Source: a virus | Virus record (IMG/VR): IMGVR_UViG_3300033049_000020 | Span: 64,001 to 128,000 of that record | Length of the DNA stretch: 64,000 nucleotides | Direction: 5' to 3' (one strand) | Shown here: positions 2,783-45,864 of the stretch, piece by piece | Layout: every line of letters starts with the position of its first letter | Position numbering within the stretch: position 1 is the first letter of the stretch | Notes under the pieces: generated by a model | Told to the model about the DNA's origin: nothing | Seen by the model: the letters and a program-made list of their open reading frames with translations, nothing else | Databases searched by the model: none | Program-made: the position numbers and the translations under genes

Positions 2783-3435
2783 AATGAAATTGTACCCAAT
2801 ATTAGAATCAGTTTTATCTGAAGAGGAAGTATTTGAAACTATCGAGACTTTAATGGGTGAAGAATATCCTTCCAGTTTTAATATGGAAGAGTTCAAAACA
2901 TTGCGTTCATATAGTGCAAGGGTACGATACTGTGAAACTCATTTACAACGAATAGCGGCTGGTACTGCCAGAGTGGTATTTAAAATTGATAATGAAAAGG
3001 TACTTAAGTTGGCCAAGAATCAAAAAGGTCTGGCTCAGAACGAAGTTGAAATATCTTATTCCCAATATAATGACCTTGAACATGTTCTAGCTAGAACATT
3101 CGATTACGAACCAAATGAAACTAAATACAGCACAATTCACTAATATAACAGGATTCAAATGGAAGGATTTTCAAGCTGCTATTCATAATTATGGACAAGA
3201 TGTTAATGGACGTGGTGGTGGTTATAAAATGCCAATAGACCACATGGTTTCATAAACCATGTGGGAAGAAGAATTTATTTATGGTGTATTCGATTATATT
3301 GGTAACTACGGTGTTCCAGCAGGTGACCTTACTAGAATGAATTCTTATGGAGTTGTTAAGCGTGGTGGAACTGACGAAATTGTTATCATTGACTACGGTT
3401 TAACATCTGACGTATATTCATCATATTATAGTTAA
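2783..3435 (+). pseudogene. Disrupted protein-kinase-like gene
   Basis: GTARVVF..KVLKLA..NEVE N-lobe; frame break near 3120-3140 and in-frame TAA at 3253; downstream frame continues GDL..NSYG...VIIDYG to stop at 3435. Confidence 0.55.
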
Positions 3436-4683: not shown

Positions 4684-5441
4684 AACGTGCATTTTTAGAA
4701 AAGGAAGCTGGTGAATGGGCTTATGATTTTGTTTTCACGTCCAAACAAGCAGCTATTGATTTAGGGTATGAAGTAATACCTTGTGATACTGTCAGAGGAT
4801 TCGACTTTAATTACCCAAATATTACTGAGGATATTTGTATTGGTTCAGTAGAGTTCACAGAGATGTTTTTCAAGGAATGTGGTGTAATGACTCCTGAATA
4901 TCTTGGCTATCCAGACTCTCTCATTAATAATAAGAGCGCTATGGGTAGAACTGTAACTGAATGTACTGTGTATGACTTAATTAACCATGAATATCCATAC
5001 TTTGTTAAACCTTCAAGAAAGGTTAAACAGTTTACGGGTGACGTGATAGAGAATGATGGTCAAATGCGAATATTCAGAGATTATTATGATGTAGCTGATG
5101 ATACGGAATTGTACCTATCAGATGTGGTTAATTTCGTAAGTGAATATCGATGCTTTATTCATAATGGTGAGTTGAAAGGTATTCAATACTATAAAGGTGA
5201 CTTTACGGTATTCCCTAGAATGAAAGCGATTAAATACATTATGAATATCTATGAAAATGATTTAACCACAAAACCATTGGCTTATACAATGGATGTTGGT
5301 GTATTGGATACTGGGGAAACACATTTGGTAGAGTTGAATGACATGTGGGCAATTGGTGCTTATGGATTTGACTCAGAGGATTATGTTAGAATGATAATTA
5401 GTCGTTTTAGACAAATGGCTTTTGCGTTAACTACGAAATAA
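4680..5441 (+). CDS. ATP-grasp (R2K-like) protein
   Basis: FVKP..K.FTG, SEYRCF, MDVG...LVELND. Confidence 0.75.
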   Translation: MKRAFLEKEAGEWAYDFVFTSKQAAIDLGYEVIPCDTVRGFDFNYPNITEDICIGSVEFTEMFFKECGVMTPEYLGYPDSLINNKSAMGRTVTECTVYDLINHEYPYFVKPSRKVKQFTGDVIENDGQMRIFRDYYDVADDTELYLSDVVNFVSEYRCFIHNGELKGIQYYKGDFTVFPRMKAIKYIMNIYENDLTTKPLAYTMDVGVLDTGETHLVELNDMWAIGAYGFDSEDYVRMIISRFRQMAFALTTK

Positions 5442-16496: not shown

Positions 16497-16566
16497 AAAA
16501 TATTTTACAAAAGACTTGTATTATCCAAATACTTTTCGTATCTTTGTACTATATTTAATAGAAAGA
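16497..16566 (+). repeat. 70-bp promoter block identical to 26843-26912
   Basis: Exact direct repeat containing TATCTTTG and TATTTAA, ahead of leaders 1 and 2. Confidence 0.9.
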
Positions 16567-16577
16567 AGAAACAAGTT

Positions 16578-16673
16578 ATGTTTACAACAATTACAATATT
16601 AGTCTTATGTTTACTGAGCAGCGTGGTGCTGTTGAGGCAAGAGAGCTATGATGTAATCTATTGTAAAGCATAA
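16578..16673 (+). CDS. Leader peptide 1 (Leu/Val/Cys-rich): MFTTITILVLCLLSSVVLLRQESYDVIYCKA
   Basis: Short ORF between promoter and terminator, ahead of Cys/Val/Leu tRNAs. Confidence 0.75.
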   Translation: MFTTITILVLCLLSSVVLLRQESYDVIYCKA

Positions 16674-16698
16674 AGAACTACAATACTTAATACATTAG

Positions 16699-16729
16699 AA
16701 GCTCTTACTCTCCAGTAAGGGCTTTTTTT
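16699..16729 (+). terminator. Attenuator terminator 1
   Basis: AAGCTCTTACT/AGTAAGGGCTT plus T run; 5' arm can pair alternatively with GAGAGCT at 16641. Confidence 0.85.
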
Positions 16730-16755
16730 ATGTCCAGTTCTTTGAAATAAAATAT

Positions 16756-18530: not shown

Positions 18531-18568
18531 CTGGTGACTTTTTGGTACCTAGCACTATATTTAACTAT

Positions 18569-19213
18569 ATGAGGAAACCAAAAACGATACATTACATTTA
18601 CAAAACCACTTGTGATGTAACTGGTCGATACTATGTAGGGATGCATAGTACCAGTAACCTAGAAGATGGTTATATGGGTTCAGGTAAGAGGTTAAGACGT
18701 TCCATACGTAAGTACGGAGAAGATAATCATACCAAAGAGGTTGTGGCGTTCTACGATAGTAGGGAACTACTGGTTGAAGCTGAGAAGGAAGCCATCACAC
18801 CATATATGATTGGGGATAGGGATTGTATGAATCTGATGGGAGGTGGAACTGGCGGTTGGTGTAGTGAGGAGCACATGGTTAAATGTACTATAGCTGCTGG
18901 AAAAGCTAATAAAGTAAGGTTTGAAGTGGATATTGAGTATAAGAATTGGTGTTTAGATATTATGGCTAAAGGTAGGGCTAAATTAATTGATACGGGAGCG
19001 TATAAAAAGAAAGGTAAGGGGTTAGGTAGAGTTCATTCAGATGAAACTAAACAGAAAATGTCCAAATCGTCTAAAGGGAATGGTGTTGGAAAGTCTAACT
19101 CTCAATATGGTACTTGTTGGATAACCAGAGATGGTGAGAACAAAAAAATAAAGAAAGAAACTCTTAATGAATACTTAGAGATAGGTTGGGTTAGGGGAAG
19201 AGGAATAAAATGA
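18569..19213 (+). mobile_element. GIY-YIG (Seg-like) homing endonuclease
   Basis: YIYKTT..YYVGMHST..YMGSG; NUMOD3-like HSDETKQKMS. Confidence 0.9.
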
Positions 19214-19887: not shown

Positions 19888-21162
19888 ATGAAAGAAGATA
19901 AGTTTTACTGTTTGACTATGTTTCCTTATCCTAGTGGTAGTGGGTTGCATGTCGGTCACGCCTATAACTACGCTGTTATGGATAGCTATTGCCGTTGGAA
20001 GAATTTCTGTGGCGTAGAGACATTCCAACCGTTTGGTTATGATGCATTTGGCTTGCCAGCAGAGAATTACGCTATTAAACACAATCGAGACCCAAGAGAG
20101 ATTACTTATGAAAATATCGATAATTTTCGTGGTCAAATGGATAGAATGACTACCAATTACGAAGAGATGGTTATCACTTCTGACCCATCTTACTACAAGT
20201 GGTCACAATGGTTGTTCACCAAGATGGTGGAACACGATATGGCCTACAAGAAGAATGCGCCTGTGAATTTTTGTCCTTCATGTAATACTGCTTTGGCTAA
20301 CGCTCAAGTGGTTGAAGATAAGTGTGAACGATGCGATACTAAGGTAGAACAACGAGATATGAACCAATGGTTTTTCAGGTTGAGCAAGTATGCAGATAGG
20401 TTGGTCTCCAACTTGGACATCATTGACTTCCCAGAGAAGACAAAGAAGCAGCAACGTCACTGGTTGAAAGAACCCCAAGATTGGTGTGTATCTAGGCAAA
20501 GAGCTTGGGGTACACCAATCCCTATTAAGGGAGAAACCGACACATTGGATACATTCGTTGACAGCTCATTTTACTTTATAAGGTATTGTGACCCAACTAA
20601 CGAGAATGAAATAGCCGCTAAGGATAAGATACGTCAAGTAGACTTGTATGTAGGTGGTAATGAACACGCTTGTATGCACTTGGTGTATGCTAGGTTTGTA
20701 AATATGTTCTTGTTTGATATTGGTGTGACCCCATTTGAAGAGCCATTCAAGAAATTGGTTCACCAAGGTATGATAATCAAGGATGGTGAGAAGATGAGCA
20801 AATCTAAAGGTAATATTGTTAATCCAGACGATTATGACCCAGACGAGATGCGAGAATATTTGATGTTTTTGGGTCCTTATACCCAAGGTGGTGATTGGAG
20901 CGATAGTGCTATGGTGGGCATTAGGAGGTTCAACGGTAGGTTTAATAGATGGTTGGGTAATGCCCAGATTGACGGTGAATCAATAGATGTTGGACAATTG
21001 ATGAGTGATATTGATAAAAATGTGGAGATATTTAATTTTCATTTGGTTATTAGTTCATTTATGAAATTCTATAATTCAAACAAGGGTAAAGTTATCAACA
21101 TTAACACTAAGAATGAATTGACTAAAATGTTTACCTGTTTTGCACCCAATTTTACGTCTTAG
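19888..21162 (+). CDS. leuS: Minimal leucyl-tRNA synthetase (no CP1 editing domain)
   Basis: MFPYPSG.GLHVGH, DAFGLPAENYA, DWCVSRQRAWG, GGNEHA.MHL.YARF, KMSKSKGN. Confidence 0.95.
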   Translation: MKEDKFYCLTMFPYPSGSGLHVGHAYNYAVMDSYCRWKNFCGVETFQPFGYDAFGLPAENYAIKHNRDPREITYENIDNFRGQMDRMTTNYEEMVITSDPSYYKWSQWLFTKMVEHDMAYKKNAPVNFCPSCNTALANAQVVEDKCERCDTKVEQRDMNQWFFRLSKYADRLVSNLDIIDFPEKTKKQQRHWLKEPQDWCVSRQRAWGTPIPIKGETDTLDTFVDSSFYFIRYCDPTNENEIAAKDKIRQVDLYVGGNEHACMHLVYARFVNMFLFDIGVTPFEEPFKKLVHQGMIIKDGEKMSKSKGNIVNPDDYDPDEMREYLMFLGPYTQGGDWSDSAMVGIRRFNGRFNRWLGNAQIDGESIDVGQLMSDIDKNVEIFNFHLVISSFMKFYNSNKGKVININTKNELTKMFTCFAPNFTS

Positions 21163-25586: not shown

Positions 25587-26923
25587 GATGGACTTAGAAA
25601 AACAATGGAACGACTTACGTAACGATGGTAAATTATTATCATATATTGAGGATAAGTTTGACCACTATAAAGAACTTGGCTATCAAGTAAGTGCCTTCAT
25701 AAGCTCTTCTTATATTAGTATTGGAGATGAGAGTATCACAGGCAACAAATCCATGTACCACGAATTAAAGAGTATTCATGATATGGATGCGTACTTAAAA
25801 GATAAAGAGGAAAGTCAACCATGAACAAACTACACGCAAGAAAAATAAGTGAAACCATACCTGATGTTGCAATATTCAACATGCTGGAACGTGCTAAGAC
25901 TGAGGTAAAGGATTGGTCGGTTCCATGTAAGGTGAATGGTCAGATAAGTAGGGGACATTTCTGGAACATGTTCGCATGTCAACTTAAAGCTCCAGATTTT
26001 GAAATCGTGAGTAGTATGGTTAAGTATAGTCTTATATATGAGTTCGGTGACCTACTTCCAAAGGAGTACCAACCACCCAAAAAGAAAAAAGGTAAGGAGT
26101 TACCATTAAACTATATTCATTCAGAACCAAAATTTAACTAATGGAAACAGATGGAGATTACGATACTGGATGGGATGAATCAGAAGATACTGAACTAGAA
26201 GCATGGGATGTAGAAACGGATTCTGAAGACCCAGAATTTGAAACTGGTAAGGAACCAAATAAGGATATTGATTATTTATACATTCTTGGTGAGGCTTGGC
26301 CAGTATATCCGCAAGGTATCACCACTATTTTCGAAGATAAATATGAAAGACCTCATATTGTATCTAGAGAGCAATTTGATGCTATTCACACCAAATACTC
26401 TTGTATAGATATTGATGATGAGGTAACGGCTATCGATATAGTCAAAATTGGAAACACATCTTACGAATTTACCATTAAAGAACTTAATATCAGATGTCGC
26501 TCTAACTATCCTTGGGCATTCTTTGAGAACACTCCAGAGAATAGACCGAAAATCAATGAGTACTATAGACAGAAAAAGAATAGAGAAGAGTTGGCTGAAA
26601 TAGTTGAAGTATTAAGAAACGATATTGCACAACTATGAACGAAGAAGTTACCCACTTCAATTATTGTATAGCTAGACCATGGAAAAATAATCCAAATAGT
26701 CTATCCGCATACGCTTTAGGTACTCAATTATTTTATGGTACTATGGAGGAGGCTGAAGACACAAGAGCGAATATAAGTAAACGAGCTGGAAAAGAATATG
26801 AAATCTATAAGCTTGATAATCAACCACTTATGAGAAAACCTTAAAATATTTTACAAAAGACTTGTATTATCCAAATACTTTTCGTATCTTTGTACTATAT
26901 TTAATAGAAAGACATAAACAGTT

Positions 26924-26992
26924 ATGAGAAACTTTAACGACATATTCGAATTCAACTTTGCCGCATTTGCGGAGGAGGATGATTGCATCTAG
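26924..26992 (+). CDS. Leader peptide 2 (Phe/Glu/Asp/Ala-rich): MRNFNDIFEFNFAAFAEEDDCI
   Basis: Short ORF between promoter and terminator, ahead of Phe/Glu/Ala/Asp tRNAs. Confidence 0.8.
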   Translation: MRNFNDIFEFNFAAFAEEDDCI

Positions 26993-27034
26993 ATGCCAAA
27001 GGATATGTTGTAAACGAAACTCAATACGATATAC

Positions 27035-27068
27035 AAAACCTTTGGCTAACCAGTCAAAGGTTTTTTTT
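27035..27068 (+). terminator. Attenuator terminator 2
   Basis: AAAACCTTTGGCT/AGTCAAAGGTTTT plus T run; CCTTTGGC can pair alternatively with GCCAAAGG at 26995. Confidence 0.85.
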
Positions 27069-27185
27069 ATGCCTTAAAATTAAAATATGCGACCTAAGCT
27101 AACTTGGTAGAAGCACTGGCTTGAAACCCTTCTTTCTAATAGAAGTAAAACAATTAGAGTGAGTTCTTTGACATCTTGGTTAAAT

Positions 27186-27259
27186 GGGGTAGTGGTAGAG
27201 TTGGTCAATTGCGTTCGGTTGAAGCCCGAAAGATGTAGGTTCGATTCCTACCTGCCTCA
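27186..27259 (+). tRNA. tRNA-Phe(GAA)
   Basis: GGGGTAG/CTGCCTC, loop TTGAAGC. Confidence 0.8.
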
Positions 27260-27323
27260 CAAAAGTTTGAACTATTTTTACACTTTTCAGTCTTTGTTGA
27301 TATTTATATTAAACGATGATATT

Positions 27324-27740
27324 ATGGAAAAGAAAATTTGTACACGATGTGAAGATAGTAAAGAGTTAGACGACTTCAGTTGGAAGAGTAAAGTAAAAGG
27401 GACTAAACAGTCTAAGTGTAAAGTATGTATGCGTGAGTTGGATAAGATAAAATACGCTAATGATACTGAAAGGAGAAGAAGAATAAGGGAAACCGCAAAA
27501 CTGGCTTATATTAGGAATCGTGATTTTGTGCGGAGAGTAAAAAGGTTGGGTAGCTGCTCTGAATGTGTAGAAGATAGGTGGTATTGTTTAGACTTCCATC
27601 ATTGTGGAGATAAAGAGTTTGAACTTAGTGATATGGTACATTCTGGGTATTCCATTATTAAGATTAAAAAGGAAATTAGAAAATGTAAGCTTCTATGTGC
27701 TAATTGTCATAGAGAAGAACATTACCAGAATGGTTATTGA
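27324..27740 (+). mobile_element. HNH homing endonuclease
   Basis: CSEC..LDFHH...KC.LLCANCHREEH. Confidence 0.85.
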
Positions 27741-27776
27741 CGCGGTTCGAAACTGGTAGGTCGCACCAAAACATAC

Positions 27777-27849
27777 GTGACAGTAGCTCAGTTGGTAGAG
27801 CATCGCCCTGAAGAGGCGAGTGTCGGGGGTTCGAGACCCTCTTGTCACA
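27777..27849 (+). tRNA. tRNA-Phe(GAA)
   Basis: GTGACAG/TTGTCAC, loop CTGAAGA. Confidence 0.9.
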
Positions 27850-28013
27850 CAGCTAATATTTTAGCCAGAAATAGCTAAAATAGAGGTAAATAGTTAATAT
27901 ATTAGCTATTGTTCTTTGACATCTTGGTTAAATGGTGCTGTATGCAAGCGGTTCAACGCAGCAATTTGACATTTTCTAAATGTTTAGTATATTTATATTA
28001 AAATAGATATATT

Positions 28014-28640
28014 ATGGTAAGAAAATGGAGAGAAAAGGAAATTGAGTTTTTAAAGCTTAATTATGGTGCTAATGGTTGTAAATACGTTTGTGAAAAATTA
28101 AATAGAGGTAGAGGTAGTGTACAGAAAAAGGCTAAAGTCTTCAACCTGAAAGTAGATAGGAAAAAAATTTATTATTCAGTGGAAGTTGTTAGTAGAATAG
28201 TCAGTGAAAGTATGTCGATGAAGGATGTGGTGTTGGCATTAGGTAAAAGTGTTAGTGGTAAACAATATAAGGTAATAAAAAAGTTTATAGATGATAATAG
28301 TATTGACGATACACATTTTAATCCTTACCACTTAAATAAAACTAATTTAAAAATTGGTAGAGTCACATATCCAATTGACCATTGGCTTAAGAACGGTTCT
28401 AATATTAGTAGTTCTAACTTAAAGGTTAAACTATATAAAGAAGGTCTGAAGAAGAGGGATTGCGAAATGTGTGGGCAAGGTGAAGAATGGTTAGGTAAAA
28501 AAATGAGTTTAATACTTGACCATATTAATGGGGTGAATGATGATAATAGGTTGGATAACTTAAGGATTGTTTGCCCTAATTGTAACGCTACCTTGGAAAC
28601 CCATTGTAGAGGTAGTAAGGGATTAAAACAACGTGCGTAA
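28014..28640 (+). mobile_element. HNH homing endonuclease
   Basis: CEMCG..LDHING..DNRLDNLRIVCPNC. Confidence 0.9.
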
Positions 28641-28714
28641 TGCAATTGGGTGCGCAACTGGGCTTTCACCCCAGCTACATTGTTAGAGAGTGGGTTCGAT
28701 TCCCACACGCATGA
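28632..28714 (+). tRNA. tRNA-Glu(TTC), long variable arm
   Basis: CGTGCGT/ACGCATG, loop CTTTCAC; overlaps HNH stop. Confidence 0.75.
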
Positions 28715-28908
28715 CTATACAACCTTGTGTCTATATGACTTCGAGGGTTCGAATCCCTTCGGCACTACATTATTGGTGTTCCAAATTGACCTAAAATTGA
28801 GTGTTTTGGAACACCAATAACCAGCCAAAACTACCTGTTTTAGGGTACATTTGGCTGGTTATAGAACGCGGAATGTACTTAAATGTGGTAGATTCCGAGA
28901 AATATCAC

Positions 28909-28981
28909 CGCCCGTTGGTCTATCGGTTAGGACGTCTGGTTTTCAACCAGAAGGTGATGGGTTCAATTCCCATACGGGTGA
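28909..28981 (+). tRNA. tRNA-Glu(TTC)
   Basis: CGCCCGT/ACGGGTG, loop TTTTCAA. Confidence 0.9.
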
Positions 28982-29011
28982 CCTTGACAATCTGGAAAGA
29001 CAGATAATTAT

Positions 29012-29088
29012 GGGGGATGGGACTGCTTTGGAGTGGTCACCTCACTTGCAATGAGGAAATCAGATGGGTTCGAATCCCATATCCTCCA
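29012..29088 (+). tRNA. tRNA-Ala(TGC)
   Basis: G3:U70 pair, loop CTTGCAA. Confidence 0.85.
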
Positions 29089-29153
29089 CTCAATGTGGGA
29101 CTTTGATTTACTTTTTCTCCACTTTGCGTATATTTATAATAAAGACTAAATAA

Positions 29154-29933
29154 ATGGCTAAGTGTAAGAATATTGAGTGTAAAAATAATACAGAAGGTAA
29201 ACGAGTTTATTGTTCGTTACAGTGTAGGAACTATTATGTTAACAAATATATTAGGGACTACAATAAAAATAGCAAGGGGCTTGCCAAAGACGCTAAGAAA
29301 GTTTATGAGGACAACCCTAAATATTGCTTAAACCCTAATTGCGGAGAGAAGATAACATATAAGAAAAGAAGGAACCAATATTGTAATAGCTCATGTCAGG
29401 CGTCTGTTACGGGTGTAGGTAGAATTGTTAGCGAAAGTACTAGGGAAAAGCATAGATTAAGTAGGTTAAAACAAATTGGTGATTACAAAAAGGTTGATTG
29501 TAAATGGTGTGGTTCAGAACTATTAGTTATGAATAGAAGACTATATTGTGATTCAGAATGTAGAAGAAAATATAATCGTAAGAATATGGATGAGTTCTTA
29601 ATCTACAAAGCTGACACAAAATTCGGTTTTAATTTGGGTGATTATCCTAAAGAATTTAATTTTGGGCTGATAGAGGAACACGGTTGGTACTCACCAACCA
29701 ATTCAAGAAAGCCTAATATTGGTGGTATAAGTAGAGACCACATGTTATCAGTTAGAGAAGGGTTTAATAGTGGGATAGACCCAAAATTATTGAGTCATCC
29801 AGCCAATTGTAAATTGATGATTCATGGTGATAATATTAGTAAGAATAAGAAATCTAGTATAACAGAAGAAGAATTAAAGGAAAGGATTAAAGAATGGAAT
29901 AAGAAATATGGGGCTATGGTGACAACTGGCTAA
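29154..29933 (+). mobile_element. Zn-finger/HNH-like homing endonuclease
   Basis: Multiple CxxC/YCS..C; SRDHMLS..HPANC..NISK; ends inside tRNA-Ala. Confidence 0.65.
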
Positions 29934-29983
29934 CACGTTGCTTTTGCAAGGCAGAGATGGGGTATCGTACACCCCTAGCTCCA
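29910..29983 (+). tRNA. tRNA-Ala(TGC), atypical T loop
   Basis: GGGGCTA/TAGCTCC, loop TTTGCAA. Confidence 0.75.
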
Positions 29984-30297
29984 CTTATTAACTTAAAAAT
30001 GAAGTAAAATGAGACTTACAGAGAAAAGAGAAATGCTTATGAAATTGGGTGAGAACCTAATGAGTAAAGGTGGTAAGCTAACACTTAACTTCACCAACGG
30101 TAGTATGAGGTATACGGAGCTTATAGCTTCTGAACAGTATCACTATCAAAGTGACAAACGATATGTCGAAATATCGGCTATGGTTCATTTCAGTGAACCA
30201 AACGTCTACAGGGTAATACCTATAGGCACTAATACAATTAGTTTTGTACTGGAAACACTTCTGAGTAACTCCAAGTAACCGCTTGGCATCAGTAATT

Positions 30298-30369
30298 GGT
30301 CTTGAAGCACAATGGCTGTGCAACTCGTTGTCTGCGAGAAAGTTGCGAGTTCGAATCTCGTCAGGACCG
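30298..30369 (+). tRNA. tRNA-Asp(GTC)
   Basis: GGTCTTG/CAGGACC-G, loop TTGTCTG. Confidence 0.8.
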
Positions 30370-30398
30370 CCTTTGACAATCTGGAAAGACAGATAAAT

Positions 30399-30481
30399 GG
30401 ATATGGCGCATAACGGCTGGTGTACCTGACTGTCACTCAGGTGTGTGTAACACGTAGTGGGTTCGACTCCCATCATATCTG
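30399..30481 (+). tRNA. tRNA-Asp(GTC), long variable arm
   Basis: GGATATG/CATATCT-G, loop CTGTCAC. Confidence 0.8.
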
Positions 30482-30517
30482 CCCTTGACTTTTTGGTACT
30501 TAGCCATATTTATATGT

Positions 30518-31159
30518 ATGAGGAAACCAAAAACGATACATTACCTTTACAAGACTACTTGTAAAGTAACAAATAGGTACTATGTAGGGATGCATAGTAC
30601 CAACGACTTAGAAGACGGTTATATGGGTTCTGGAAGAAGGTTACGAGCCTCAATCAGGAAACATGGTGAAGATAACCATACCAAAGAGATATTGGAGTTC
30701 TTTGATGATAGAGGACGACTGATAGAAGCAGAGAAGGAATCTATTACCTTAGACATGATTGATGATAAGGATTGTATGAATCTGATGGGAGGTGGAACAG
30801 GTGGTTTCATCAGCGAAGACCAACAGAGGCATCGTTCAACGATTGCAGTGGAGAAGAGAGAAAAGAAGAGAGAGGACGACCCAGAGTGGGATAAAGAGTA
30901 TAGACAAGCTCAATCCCTATCATTGATGAAGCAATATGAGAGTGGTAAGCGAGTATCCAAGCTCCCAAACTGGGAAGGTAGGAAACATTCAGAAATTACT
31001 AAAGAGAAGATGAGGGAGACTAAGAAGGGACAAGGCTCTGGCGAAACTAACTCTCAATACGGTACTTGTTGGATAACCAAAGATGGTTCCAACAAGAAGA
31101 TTAAGAAACAACTTCTTGATTCATTCCTTACTGAAGGATGGGTTAAAGGTAGAAAATAA
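30518..31159 (+). mobile_element. GIY-YIG (Seg-like) homing endonuclease, paralog of 18569
   Basis: MRKPKTIHY.YKTTC..YYVGMHST..YMGSG. Confidence 0.9.
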
Positions 31160-31465
31160 TTTGGATAGGTCGAATATTTTACGTATCTTTTACGTATCTT
31201 TGTAGGATGAAAAGATTTAAGATAGGCGATACGTTCGTCAATAATGTAGACCATAGTAAGGTTAGTTCTAAAGGATATGACCATGCAGTTAACTACCTGC
31301 CATACACTTCAGAACCAGATGAAAGTTTGGAAACTATTGGTAAAACACAAACGGTTATAGATATTGAAGATGGTGATACTATAATCACTGATTTTGTTTT
31401 ATCATCTGGAGAAACGTACTGGTTTGAAAAGGATTCCTCATACGCAGAAAGTTGTAAAAAAATAC

Positions 31466-31576
31466 GAATGTAAGAGCAAGCTGTCGTGAGACGCTGTATT
31501 GGGTTCATTACCCGATAAGTCTACGGTTAAAGGTGGTACCATTGTTAACTTATAGGTGCAATTCCTATTACATTCG
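31466..31576 (+). ncRNA. Expanded tRNA-like RNA with CAT anticodon hairpin
   Basis: GAATGTA/TACATTC acceptor, T-like arm ATAGG-TGCAATT-CCTAT, hairpin TATTGGG-TTCATTA-CCCGATA. Confidence 0.5.
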
Positions 31577-31578
31577 CT

Positions 31579-31661
31579 AAGGTTGAATACAGCAAACAAA
31601 AATTCCGAGAGATGTGCCCACGGGCACCCTTCCCGACCAAATTCCCGAAAGGGGTCAACCT
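31579..31661 (+). ncRNA. CAGCAA-stem element
   Basis: AGGTTGA-ATACAGCAA...TCAACCT closing stem with internal hairpins. Confidence 0.5.
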
Positions 31662-31667
31662 ACATTC

Positions 31668-31739
31668 CGTCCTATGGTGTAACGGCTAACATGCTACCCT
31701 GTCACGGTGGCGCTAGGGGTTCGATTCCCCTTGGGACGG
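31668..31739 (+). tRNA. tRNA-Asp(GTC)
   Basis: CGTCCTA/TGGGACG, loop CTGTCAC. Confidence 0.9.
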
Positions 31740-32708
31740 CTCTGGAACTTTTGTACCTTAGCTATATGAGGAAACAAAATGATGGTGTTTCAAGTAGAAA
31801 ATAATTTGTAAATGTCAAATAAATTTTGTATCTTTGTATTATGAGTAGATATGAAGTAAGGGTAATATGGTACGAGGGTGCCACTCAAACTGAAATAATC
31901 ACAGGTAACCTAACCATGGGTAATAATTATTATCAGATAGTTGACGAAGATTTTAAGGACTGGTTCTTCCCAATGGGAAGAACCGTAATTCAAGAACTAT
32001 GAAAGGATTTATATTTTGTATATGGATGTTTATGGATGTTTATAACACTTGTACTTGTACTTAGTCTTATAGGTTTGTGGGTGGTATTACCTACCACAAC
32101 ACATTACGTTGAAGGTCCGCCAAACATCATTAGAAGTGACTGGATGATATTAGGTGACAAATTACTGGAAGCGGTATTAACGGATAAGAAATAAAACTGA
32201 CAGATGAAACTTAAGAAATTTATAAAGAACTTAGAAGCGTTCGCAAAGAAACATCCAGAAGCATTGGAAATGACGGTAGTAACTGCCATTGATGATGAAG
32301 GTAACGGATTCAATGAGGTGTACTTTACTCCAATATTGGGATTCTACGAAGATAGAGAATTCATGTCTGTTGAGAATATGGAGGAGTACGAAAGACCTCC
32401 ATCTGACATCAACGCTGTCTGTGTGAACTAATGGGTAATAAGAAAATAAATAGGCTGCTTATCAACATGAAGAACAAGATTGATATTATTAACGGTTCAA
32501 TCAACATGGTTCATGAGATGAGGCGAGGAGAAACGATTACGTTAAATGGAATACACCGATTGGAAGTCGGGATGTCAGAGTCTACAACCAATGACGAGTA
32601 CATCGGAATAATAGACAAGTTGATTGATGAGAGAGATAACCTTCAAAATTAGTTAACCGAATGGATGGTTAAGTACGAATAACGCTTCTCTCTGTCATAT
32701 TTACATAT

Positions 32709-44862: not shown

Positions 44863-45642
44863 AAACTAATGGCTAAGAAACCAGTACCATGTATAAAGTG
44901 TGGCGAAACTAAAATAGTAATCGGAGATGCAAACGAAAGCGCCTTCAACTATTTTACGGGTAAATGTACCAATTGTGGTAATGAAGTATTTGGTGATTGT
45001 GGCATATTCCCTGAGATGGATATGATGGTTGGAACGTGGAATGCGTCTAACGACCCAAAGAAGATACTTAAGTCTTATAAGAGTACTATTAAAGATTACG
45101 AGAAGAAGATTGACGAAGTAAAACAAAAGATAGTTGAACTTGAATTCTGGCATACCAAATGATAGATATTAAAGACCTAAGAGTAGGAAATCATATTCAA
45201 CTTCATGAGGTAGATGCTGGTGAAGATAGAAAGGCAACCTTTGATTGGTTGAAGTCAAATCAATTGAAAAGGATATGATAAATGGATAAATTAGAGATAG
45301 GAACAAGAATAATATTCGTAAAGCTTTTAGATAGCCCAGCCACTGGCGACCACCCAGAATTAGTTTATGCTTATAAAGGAGACGAAGGAGAGGTAACTGG
45401 ATACAATAACTTTGAAGGGTATTGGGTTAAAAGAGATAAATGGCCAGCCCCTTTCGGTGCAGAGATAGAAACCGAATTCATCGAGTTAAAATTATAAGAC
45501 TGAAAATCAGTCACTTAAGAGAAATTTTAAAAATAATTGTACGAACACTTGTTTTATTCAAAACTATTTCGTATCTTTGTACTATAATTAAAATAAACAA
45601 AGAAACTTTGCACTTTTATTAAGTGCGCTATATTTAAAAGAA

Positions 45643-45732
45643 ATGAGAAACTTTACTACGACTTATAAAGGGAAACAGTATCCGCAAGGCACAAAGCCAA
45701 GCGCACTGAGATTGTCGTATCTTGTTTTCTAA
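45643..45732 (+). CDS. Leader peptide 3 (Thr/Tyr/Lys/Gly/Gln/Pro-rich): MRNFTTTYKGKQYPQGTKPSALRLSYLVF
   Basis: Short ORF between promoter and terminator, ahead of Pro/Gln/Tyr/Thr/Gly/Lys tRNAs. Confidence 0.8.
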   Translation: MRNFTTTYKGKQYPQGTKPSALRLSYLVF

Positions 45733-45765
45733 CTTTTTAGAATAGAAAAACACATAGATATTGCG

Positions 45766-45798
45766 AAAGCCTCAGTGAGAAATCACCGAGGCTTTTTT
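45766..45798 (+). terminator. Attenuator terminator 3
   Basis: AAAGCCTCAGTGA/TCACCGAGGCTTT plus T run; CTCAGTG can pair alternatively with CACTGAG at 45704. Confidence 0.85.
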
Positions 45799-45864
45799 GT
45801 TGTTTCATATTTTGACAACGTTAAAAATAAAATATGGTTCTTTGACATCGTGGTAATAAATAAA

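Follow-up and report, generated by a model that had tools for sequence, protein, structure and literature searches.

Why would a marine giant phage place a 22-codon open reading frame (ORF), written mostly in Phe, Glu, Asp and Ala codons and linked to a switchable transcription stop, in front of its Phe, Glu, Ala and Asp tRNA genes? The stretch of DNA analyzed here (the window) is 64,000 nucleotides in length and covers bases 64001-128000 of a 152,464-bp virus contig (IMGVR_UViG_3300033049_000020) with 36.5% G+C and more than 45 tRNA genes. The contig carries many copies of a TTG-N21-TAnnTTTG promoter (family D1, 24 copies in the window), a motif that is the signature of the Bacteroidota primary sigma factor. 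No close relative was identified in a phage database, but a near relative occurs in a TARA ocean metagenome. An initial annotation made from the sequence alone had read the locus as a transcription attenuator, and we examined each of its sequence statements before testing that reading; the coordinates of the features discussed are collected in the table.

Features of the locus, its sister modules and related loci. Positions are those of the window unless marked genome; labels beginning with L denote loci retrieved for the analysis.
Feature	Position	Strand	Details
Promoter	26857-26894	+	Bacteroidota-type; TTG at 26861-26863, 21-nt spacer, TATCTTTG at 26885-26892
Promoter block	26843-26912		70 bp, 100% identical to 16497-16566 ahead of module 1
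Leader ORF	26924-26992	+	MRNFNDIFEFNFAAFAEEDDCI; ATG 26924, TAG 26990-26992; F x5, E x3, D x3 and A x3 within codons 4-20
Region 1 (protector)	26937-26947	+	Pairs with 27001-27011 in the untranslated full-length RNA
Region 2 (antiterminator 5' strand)	26995-27012	+	GCCAAAGG + ATATGTTGTA, starting at the third base after the stop codon
Region 3	27025-27047	+	TACGATATA plus the terminator 5' arm; shared between antiterminator and terminator
Intrinsic terminator	27035-27068	+	13-bp stem (27035-27047/27052-27064), 4-nt loop, T8 run; -13.9 kcal/mol
tRNA-Phe remnant	27089-27129	+	Resembles the 5' half of tRNA-Phe, no T arm
Further tRNA fragments	27934-27970; 28739-28768
boxA-like motif GTTCTTTGACATC(T/G)TGG	27163-27175; 27911-27923; 45837-45849; genome 57000 and 48143	+	Five copies
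Downstream tRNA operon	27186-31740	+	Phe 27186-27260 and 27777-27850; Glu 28632-28715 and 28909-28983; Ala(tgc) 29012-29089; Asp 30298-30371, 30398-30484 and 31668-31740
HNH and GIY-YIG/NUMOD3 homing-endonuclease-like ORFs	28014-28640; 30485-31159; 18542-19213		Interspersed between tRNA genes; GIY-YIG copies about 79% identical paralogues
Next host-type promoter	31801
Sister module 1	16511-16731	+	Promoter, leader MFTTITILVLCLLSSVVLLRQESYDVIYCKA (16578-16673), terminator; ahead of Cys, Val and Leu tRNAs
Class I aminoacyl-tRNA synthetase-like ORF	19888-21162		424 aa; Pfam tRNA-synt_1 1.7e-42, tRNA-synt_1g 9.5e-35; inside the Cys/Val/Leu tRNA operon
Sister module 3	45544-45798	+	Promoter, leader MRNFTTTYKGKQYPQGTKPSALRLSYLVF (45643-45732), terminator; ahead of Pro, Gln, Tyr, Gly, Lys and Thr tRNAs
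Fourth module	genome 55941-56200		Outside the window; leader MMSIHISSINWRRNVTMVSNCLDFTKTGI (MMSIHISSINWRRN...); ahead of His, Ser, Asn, Arg and Met tRNAs
tRNA-Asn genes	genome 57621 and 61689		Another operon, outside the window
tRNA-like hits	674-752; 786-865; genome 59554-59941		Rfam 28-38 bits, not assigned by ARAGORN
tmRNA	genome 44751-45126 (L001:751-1126)		Outside the window; full-length, Rfam RF00023, 90.7 bits
Two tRNAs with anticodon CTA	genome 47335-47483 (L001:3335-3482)		Outside the window; amber suppressors
Cys and CTA tRNAs without a leader	genome 46998-47483
Promoter and 8-codon ORF	genome 46250-46345		Outside the window; promoter very like those of the modules; MKKEQDCM, TAG stop; ahead of a protein gene, not a tRNA
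Nested attenuators in relatives	L023:2093-2248 and 2934-3043; L026:1087-1231 and 2520-2616; L029:2614-2743 and 4929-5052		Asp/Pro/Gln leader heads the array; second, Gln-only leader before the Gln tRNAs inside it

The observation is confirmed in every sequence statement. The promoter is followed by an A-rich 5' untranslated region of about 25 nt and by the leader, which is the only ATG ORF ending near the terminator. As the initial annotation had claimed, GCCAAAGG (26995-27002) pairs with CCTTTGGC (27039-27046) in the terminator 5' arm, and the helix is extended by TATGTTGTA (27004-27012) with TACGATATA (25-33 of 27000), giving together -16.7 kcal/mol in the nascent RNA. The 70-bp identity with module 1 also holds, and ATGAGAAACTTTA recurs only at 45643, the start of leader 3; both fit the proposal of one module duplicated and re-tuned. 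Among the downstream genes, the Ala gene scores 38 bits in Rfam and has the G3:U70 pair. Relaxed ARAGORN settings gave mostly false positives, and only hits also supported by Rfam or by a clear structure were kept. A tRNA-Asn, which the initial annotation had noted as lacking for three Asn codons and had proposed to seek in this operon in related phages, is absent from the operon here. Of the three codons, N3 belongs to an MKN/MRN start motif common to many leaders, whereas the other two Asn codons, two Ile codons, one Cys codon and one Arg codon have no partner tRNA in the operon.

The terminator is the only strong + strand terminator in 26500-32200, and there is no other host-type promoter and no other strong terminator between 26894 and 31801, so that the region looks like one transcription unit with a single checkpoint. 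The boxA-like motif is found only in the tRNA zones of this genome, always on the + strand and usually just before a tRNA; it resembles bacterial rRNA-operon boxA sites and might load an antitermination complex after the attenuator, although the boxA reading was not tested.

How could this RNA act as a switch? Untranslated, it folds into a helix between regions 1 and 2 plus the terminator, at -41.4 kcal/mol, and the slightly longer stretch 26900-27075 folds better than all 200 shuffles (z -4.4). In the nascent RNA, before the 3' arm of the terminator exists, the best structure is the antiterminator, which is mutually exclusive with the terminator. Complementarity of the upstream RNA to the terminator arm as strong as that observed is reached by 1 of 500 dinucleotide shuffles. 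We folded the RNA with a ribosome mask, assuming a footprint of 13 nt 3' of the A site and using only the minimum free energy (MFE) structures. The antiterminator (-16.7 kcal/mol) stays intact for stalls from Phe8 to Ala16, is weakened at Asp20 (-10.3 kcal/mol) and is abolished with the ribosome at the TAG (-2.3 kcal/mol), which agrees with the claim that a terminating ribosome would cover this strand. The terminator starts 42 nt after the stop, beyond a ribosome footprint, and thus stays free. On the complete RNA, however, the terminator plus a small hairpin (-21.8 kcal/mol) beats the antiterminator (-16.7 kcal/mol) in every ribosome state, and the switch must therefore be kinetic, as in the classical trp attenuator; co-transcriptional kinetics were not modeled. 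Two tRNAs of this phage carry the anticodon CTA and leader 2 ends in TAG; if read through, the ORF would stop at TAA 27011-27013, giving a 90-nt ORF like leaders 3 and 4 with the antiterminator strand inside it. ORF statistics show no sign of TAG recoding on this contig, so the TAG is treated as a stop and the read-through idea stays speculative.

Is the codon match more than chance? In leader 2, 14 of 21 codons after the start encode F, E, D or A, against 24% expected from the long ORFs of this genome (binomial P=3.3e-5). The same design occurs three more times in the genome, once outside the window, where the fourth module was found through promoter homology; the leaders of modules 1 and 3 are enriched in exactly the residues of their downstream tRNAs, and leader 4 contains four Ile codons, which would be explained if the tRNA-like hits listed in the table were rearranged Ile and Arg tRNAs. 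Relatives were reached through the class I synthetase-like ORF, which is conserved in huge-phage relatives; they are IMG/VR contigs of up to 508 kb with 45-68 tRNAs each. Scanning their loci, plus further tRNA zones of five of them, gave 29 more modules, for example MKTTLSLSLSLSLSLSGWTNRAM ahead of eight Leu and Ser tRNAs, ..AQQQQQQSS.. ahead of four Gln, MRFNNNNQQQYQQNNY.. ahead of Asn, Gln and Tyr, and MKHFSSHKHSFKFWF.. ahead of His, Trp, Phe and Lys.

For the 23 modules of the second scan a fixed rule was applied (the longest ATG ORF ending near the terminator, with tRNAs counted up to the next module or 5 kb), whereas the leader ORFs of the first ten modules were picked by eye from the ORFs listed. 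Across all 33 modules the combined Fisher P is 7e-67, and the summed z-score of each leader against its own tRNA set is 130, compared with a mean of 4.8 (sd 9.8, maximum 48) when leaders are permuted among operons. Each of the 20 amino acids is 2-20 times commoner in leaders whose operon carries its tRNA. All four leaders with at least 3 Phe codons precede a tRNA-Phe, although Phe is grouped with E/D/A here, with H/K/W in some relatives and with P/V in another. Matched codons fill the second and third fifths of the leaders (65-77%) and are rare in the last two fifths (27% and 17%), where the antiterminator strand lies. Synonymous codon choice does not track the downstream anticodons (169 of 206 observed against 162.5 expected) and carries no information beyond the amino-acid match. 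Not all tRNA clusters carry a leader, as illustrated by the Phe cluster of locus L005 and by the Cys and CTA tRNAs of this genome.

The antiterminator is further supported by relatives. In nine of the first ten modules the terminator 5' arm is complementary to a strand at nt 50-80 of the leader, and across these ten modules the summed duplex energy is -114.8 kcal/mol, against -71.5 (sd 5.8) for shuffles. The TARA relative of module 1 (L013) is 94% identical over the leader; its differences cluster in the antiterminator strand (GAGAGCU to AAGGGCU) and in both terminator arms (AGCUCUU to AGCCCUU), including a compensatory A-U to G-C change that keeps both alternative helices, with only one other change in the 96-nt ORF. 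No orthologue of module 2 itself was found by the upstream protein, by a degenerate leader pattern or by the promoter block in viral contigs, so its own helices have no covariation support; the one metagenome hit, in TARA, covers module 1 only, and the rest of that scaffold was not examined.

Taken together, the attenuator interpretation of the initial annotation is supported in silico, and we regard ribosome-mediated (leader-peptide) transcription attenuation of the trp/ilv type, applied to a phage tRNA operon, as the probable explanation. In this view, host RNA polymerase starts at the Bacteroidota-type promoter and a ribosome loads on the leader. If charged tRNA-Phe, -Glu, -Asp and -Ala are plentiful, the ribosome would run to the TAG and cover GCCAAAGG, so that the terminator hairpin forms and transcription stops at 27065-27068. 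If any of these tRNAs is short, the ribosome would stall within codons 4-18, the antiterminator (26995-27012 with 27025-27046) would form first and sequester the terminator 5' arm, and polymerase would read on into the tRNA genes, whose products would relieve the stall and close the loop. Without any translation, pairing of regions 1 and 2 would favor termination. The phage therefore probably makes these tRNAs only when ribosomes read those codons slowly. The parts, their mutual exclusivity, the geometry, the codon-to-tRNA match and its recurrence come directly from computation, whereas translation of the leader, the kinetic switch and tRNA supply as the physiological signal are inferred; there are no expression, ribosome-profiling or reporter data, none of this has been tested at the bench, and the dependence of read-through on leader translation and cognate charged tRNA was not measured here. 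It should also be considered that stalling reports amino-acid starvation, which making more tRNA would not cure.

The alternative that comes closest, though we consider it unlikely, is that the same device reports general translation capacity or amino-acid starvation, or acts as a timer that opens the tRNA operons once host translation declines late in infection. Ribosome stalling cannot distinguish a missing tRNA from an uncharged one, and in most sister modules the antiterminator forms by default when no ribosome is present, so the operon would also open when translation collapses. A general sensor, however, has no need for a leader tailored to each operon, yet every leader tracks its own tRNA set, for all 20 amino acids. 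An untranslated element with an incidental ORF, either a small RNA or a riboswitch or T-box-like leader that binds tRNA or another ligand, appears very unlikely: a promoter followed by a terminator within about 200 nt is also the layout of a small RNA gene and the region is strongly structured, but no Rfam family, T-box included, matches the leader at E <= 0.5, the leaders start with ATG and A-rich second codons, and the signal lies in one reading frame at the amino-acid level while the nucleotide sequences of the modules are unrelated. Least likely is a functional small protein with its own terminator and coincidental neighboring tRNAs. Leader 1 and its relatives look like a hydrophobic helix, but leader 2 is acidic and aromatic and not a recognizable peptide family, orthologous leaders keep their composition but not their sequence (own1 compared with L005), and permuting leaders among operons never approaches the observed match (0 of 100,000 in one test).

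How does the element compare with known systems? The multivalent attenuators of enterobacterial amino-acid operons (the ilvGMEDA leader with Ile/Leu/Val and thrL with Thr/Ile) and the single-amino-acid trpL, hisL, leuL and pheL share with it a promoter-proximal short ORF enriched in regulatory codons, terminator and antiterminator hairpins that share a strand, a protector 1:2 pairing and ribosome position as the signal. Here, however, the output feeds back directly on the sensed molecule, there is no sequence or Rfam match, the setting is a phage of a Bacteroidota-type host, and in most sister modules the antiterminator strand lies inside the 3' third of the ORF. No match to Phe_leader, His_leader, Leu_leader, Thr_leader or Trp_leader was found in window 1-52000 at E <= 0.5 or at gathering scores. 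In the pheST attenuator of Escherichia coli, the pheM leader with Phe codons controls phenylalanyl-tRNA synthetase, a component of the translation apparatus for the same amino acid; pheM gates a synthetase gene and senses one amino acid, whereas this element gates eight tRNA genes of four isotypes. T-box riboswitches also attenuate transcription in response to specific tRNAs, but they bind uncharged tRNA directly, without translation, through one specifier codon, whereas the signal here is a multi-codon reading frame. The element has every structural feature of ribosome-mediated attenuators that can be tested in silico. All described ribosome-mediated attenuators regulate amino-acid biosynthesis or aminoacyl-tRNA synthetase genes, whereas the downstream genes here are eight tRNA genes plus homing-endonuclease ORFs; full-text literature searches found no paper describing leader-peptide control of tRNA genes.

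A broader reading, which we consider about as likely as not, is that huge phages of Bacteroidota-type hosts run a per-isotype tRNA homeostat, in which every tRNA operon would be transcribed only when ribosomes slow on that operon's own codons. This would let the phage detect and repair depletion of particular host tRNAs, whether from host shut-off, a codon-usage mismatch or tRNA-cleaving defense nucleases, without making 40-70 tRNAs constitutively, and it would be the first case of leader-peptide attenuation controlling tRNA genes and the first direct feedback loop on tRNA supply. Why phages carry tRNA genes, and how they use them, is still debated, with proposed reasons including codon-usage matching, replacement of degraded host tRNAs and escape from anticodon nucleases. 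A sensor placed in front of each tRNA operon and written in that operon's own codons would mean that the phage measures decoding speed isotype by isotype and answers with the matching tRNAs, which turns the question into a testable one. It would also extend the attenuation mechanism beyond metabolic operons to the translation machinery itself and provide a set of natural, modular sensors for tRNA availability covering all 20 amino acids.
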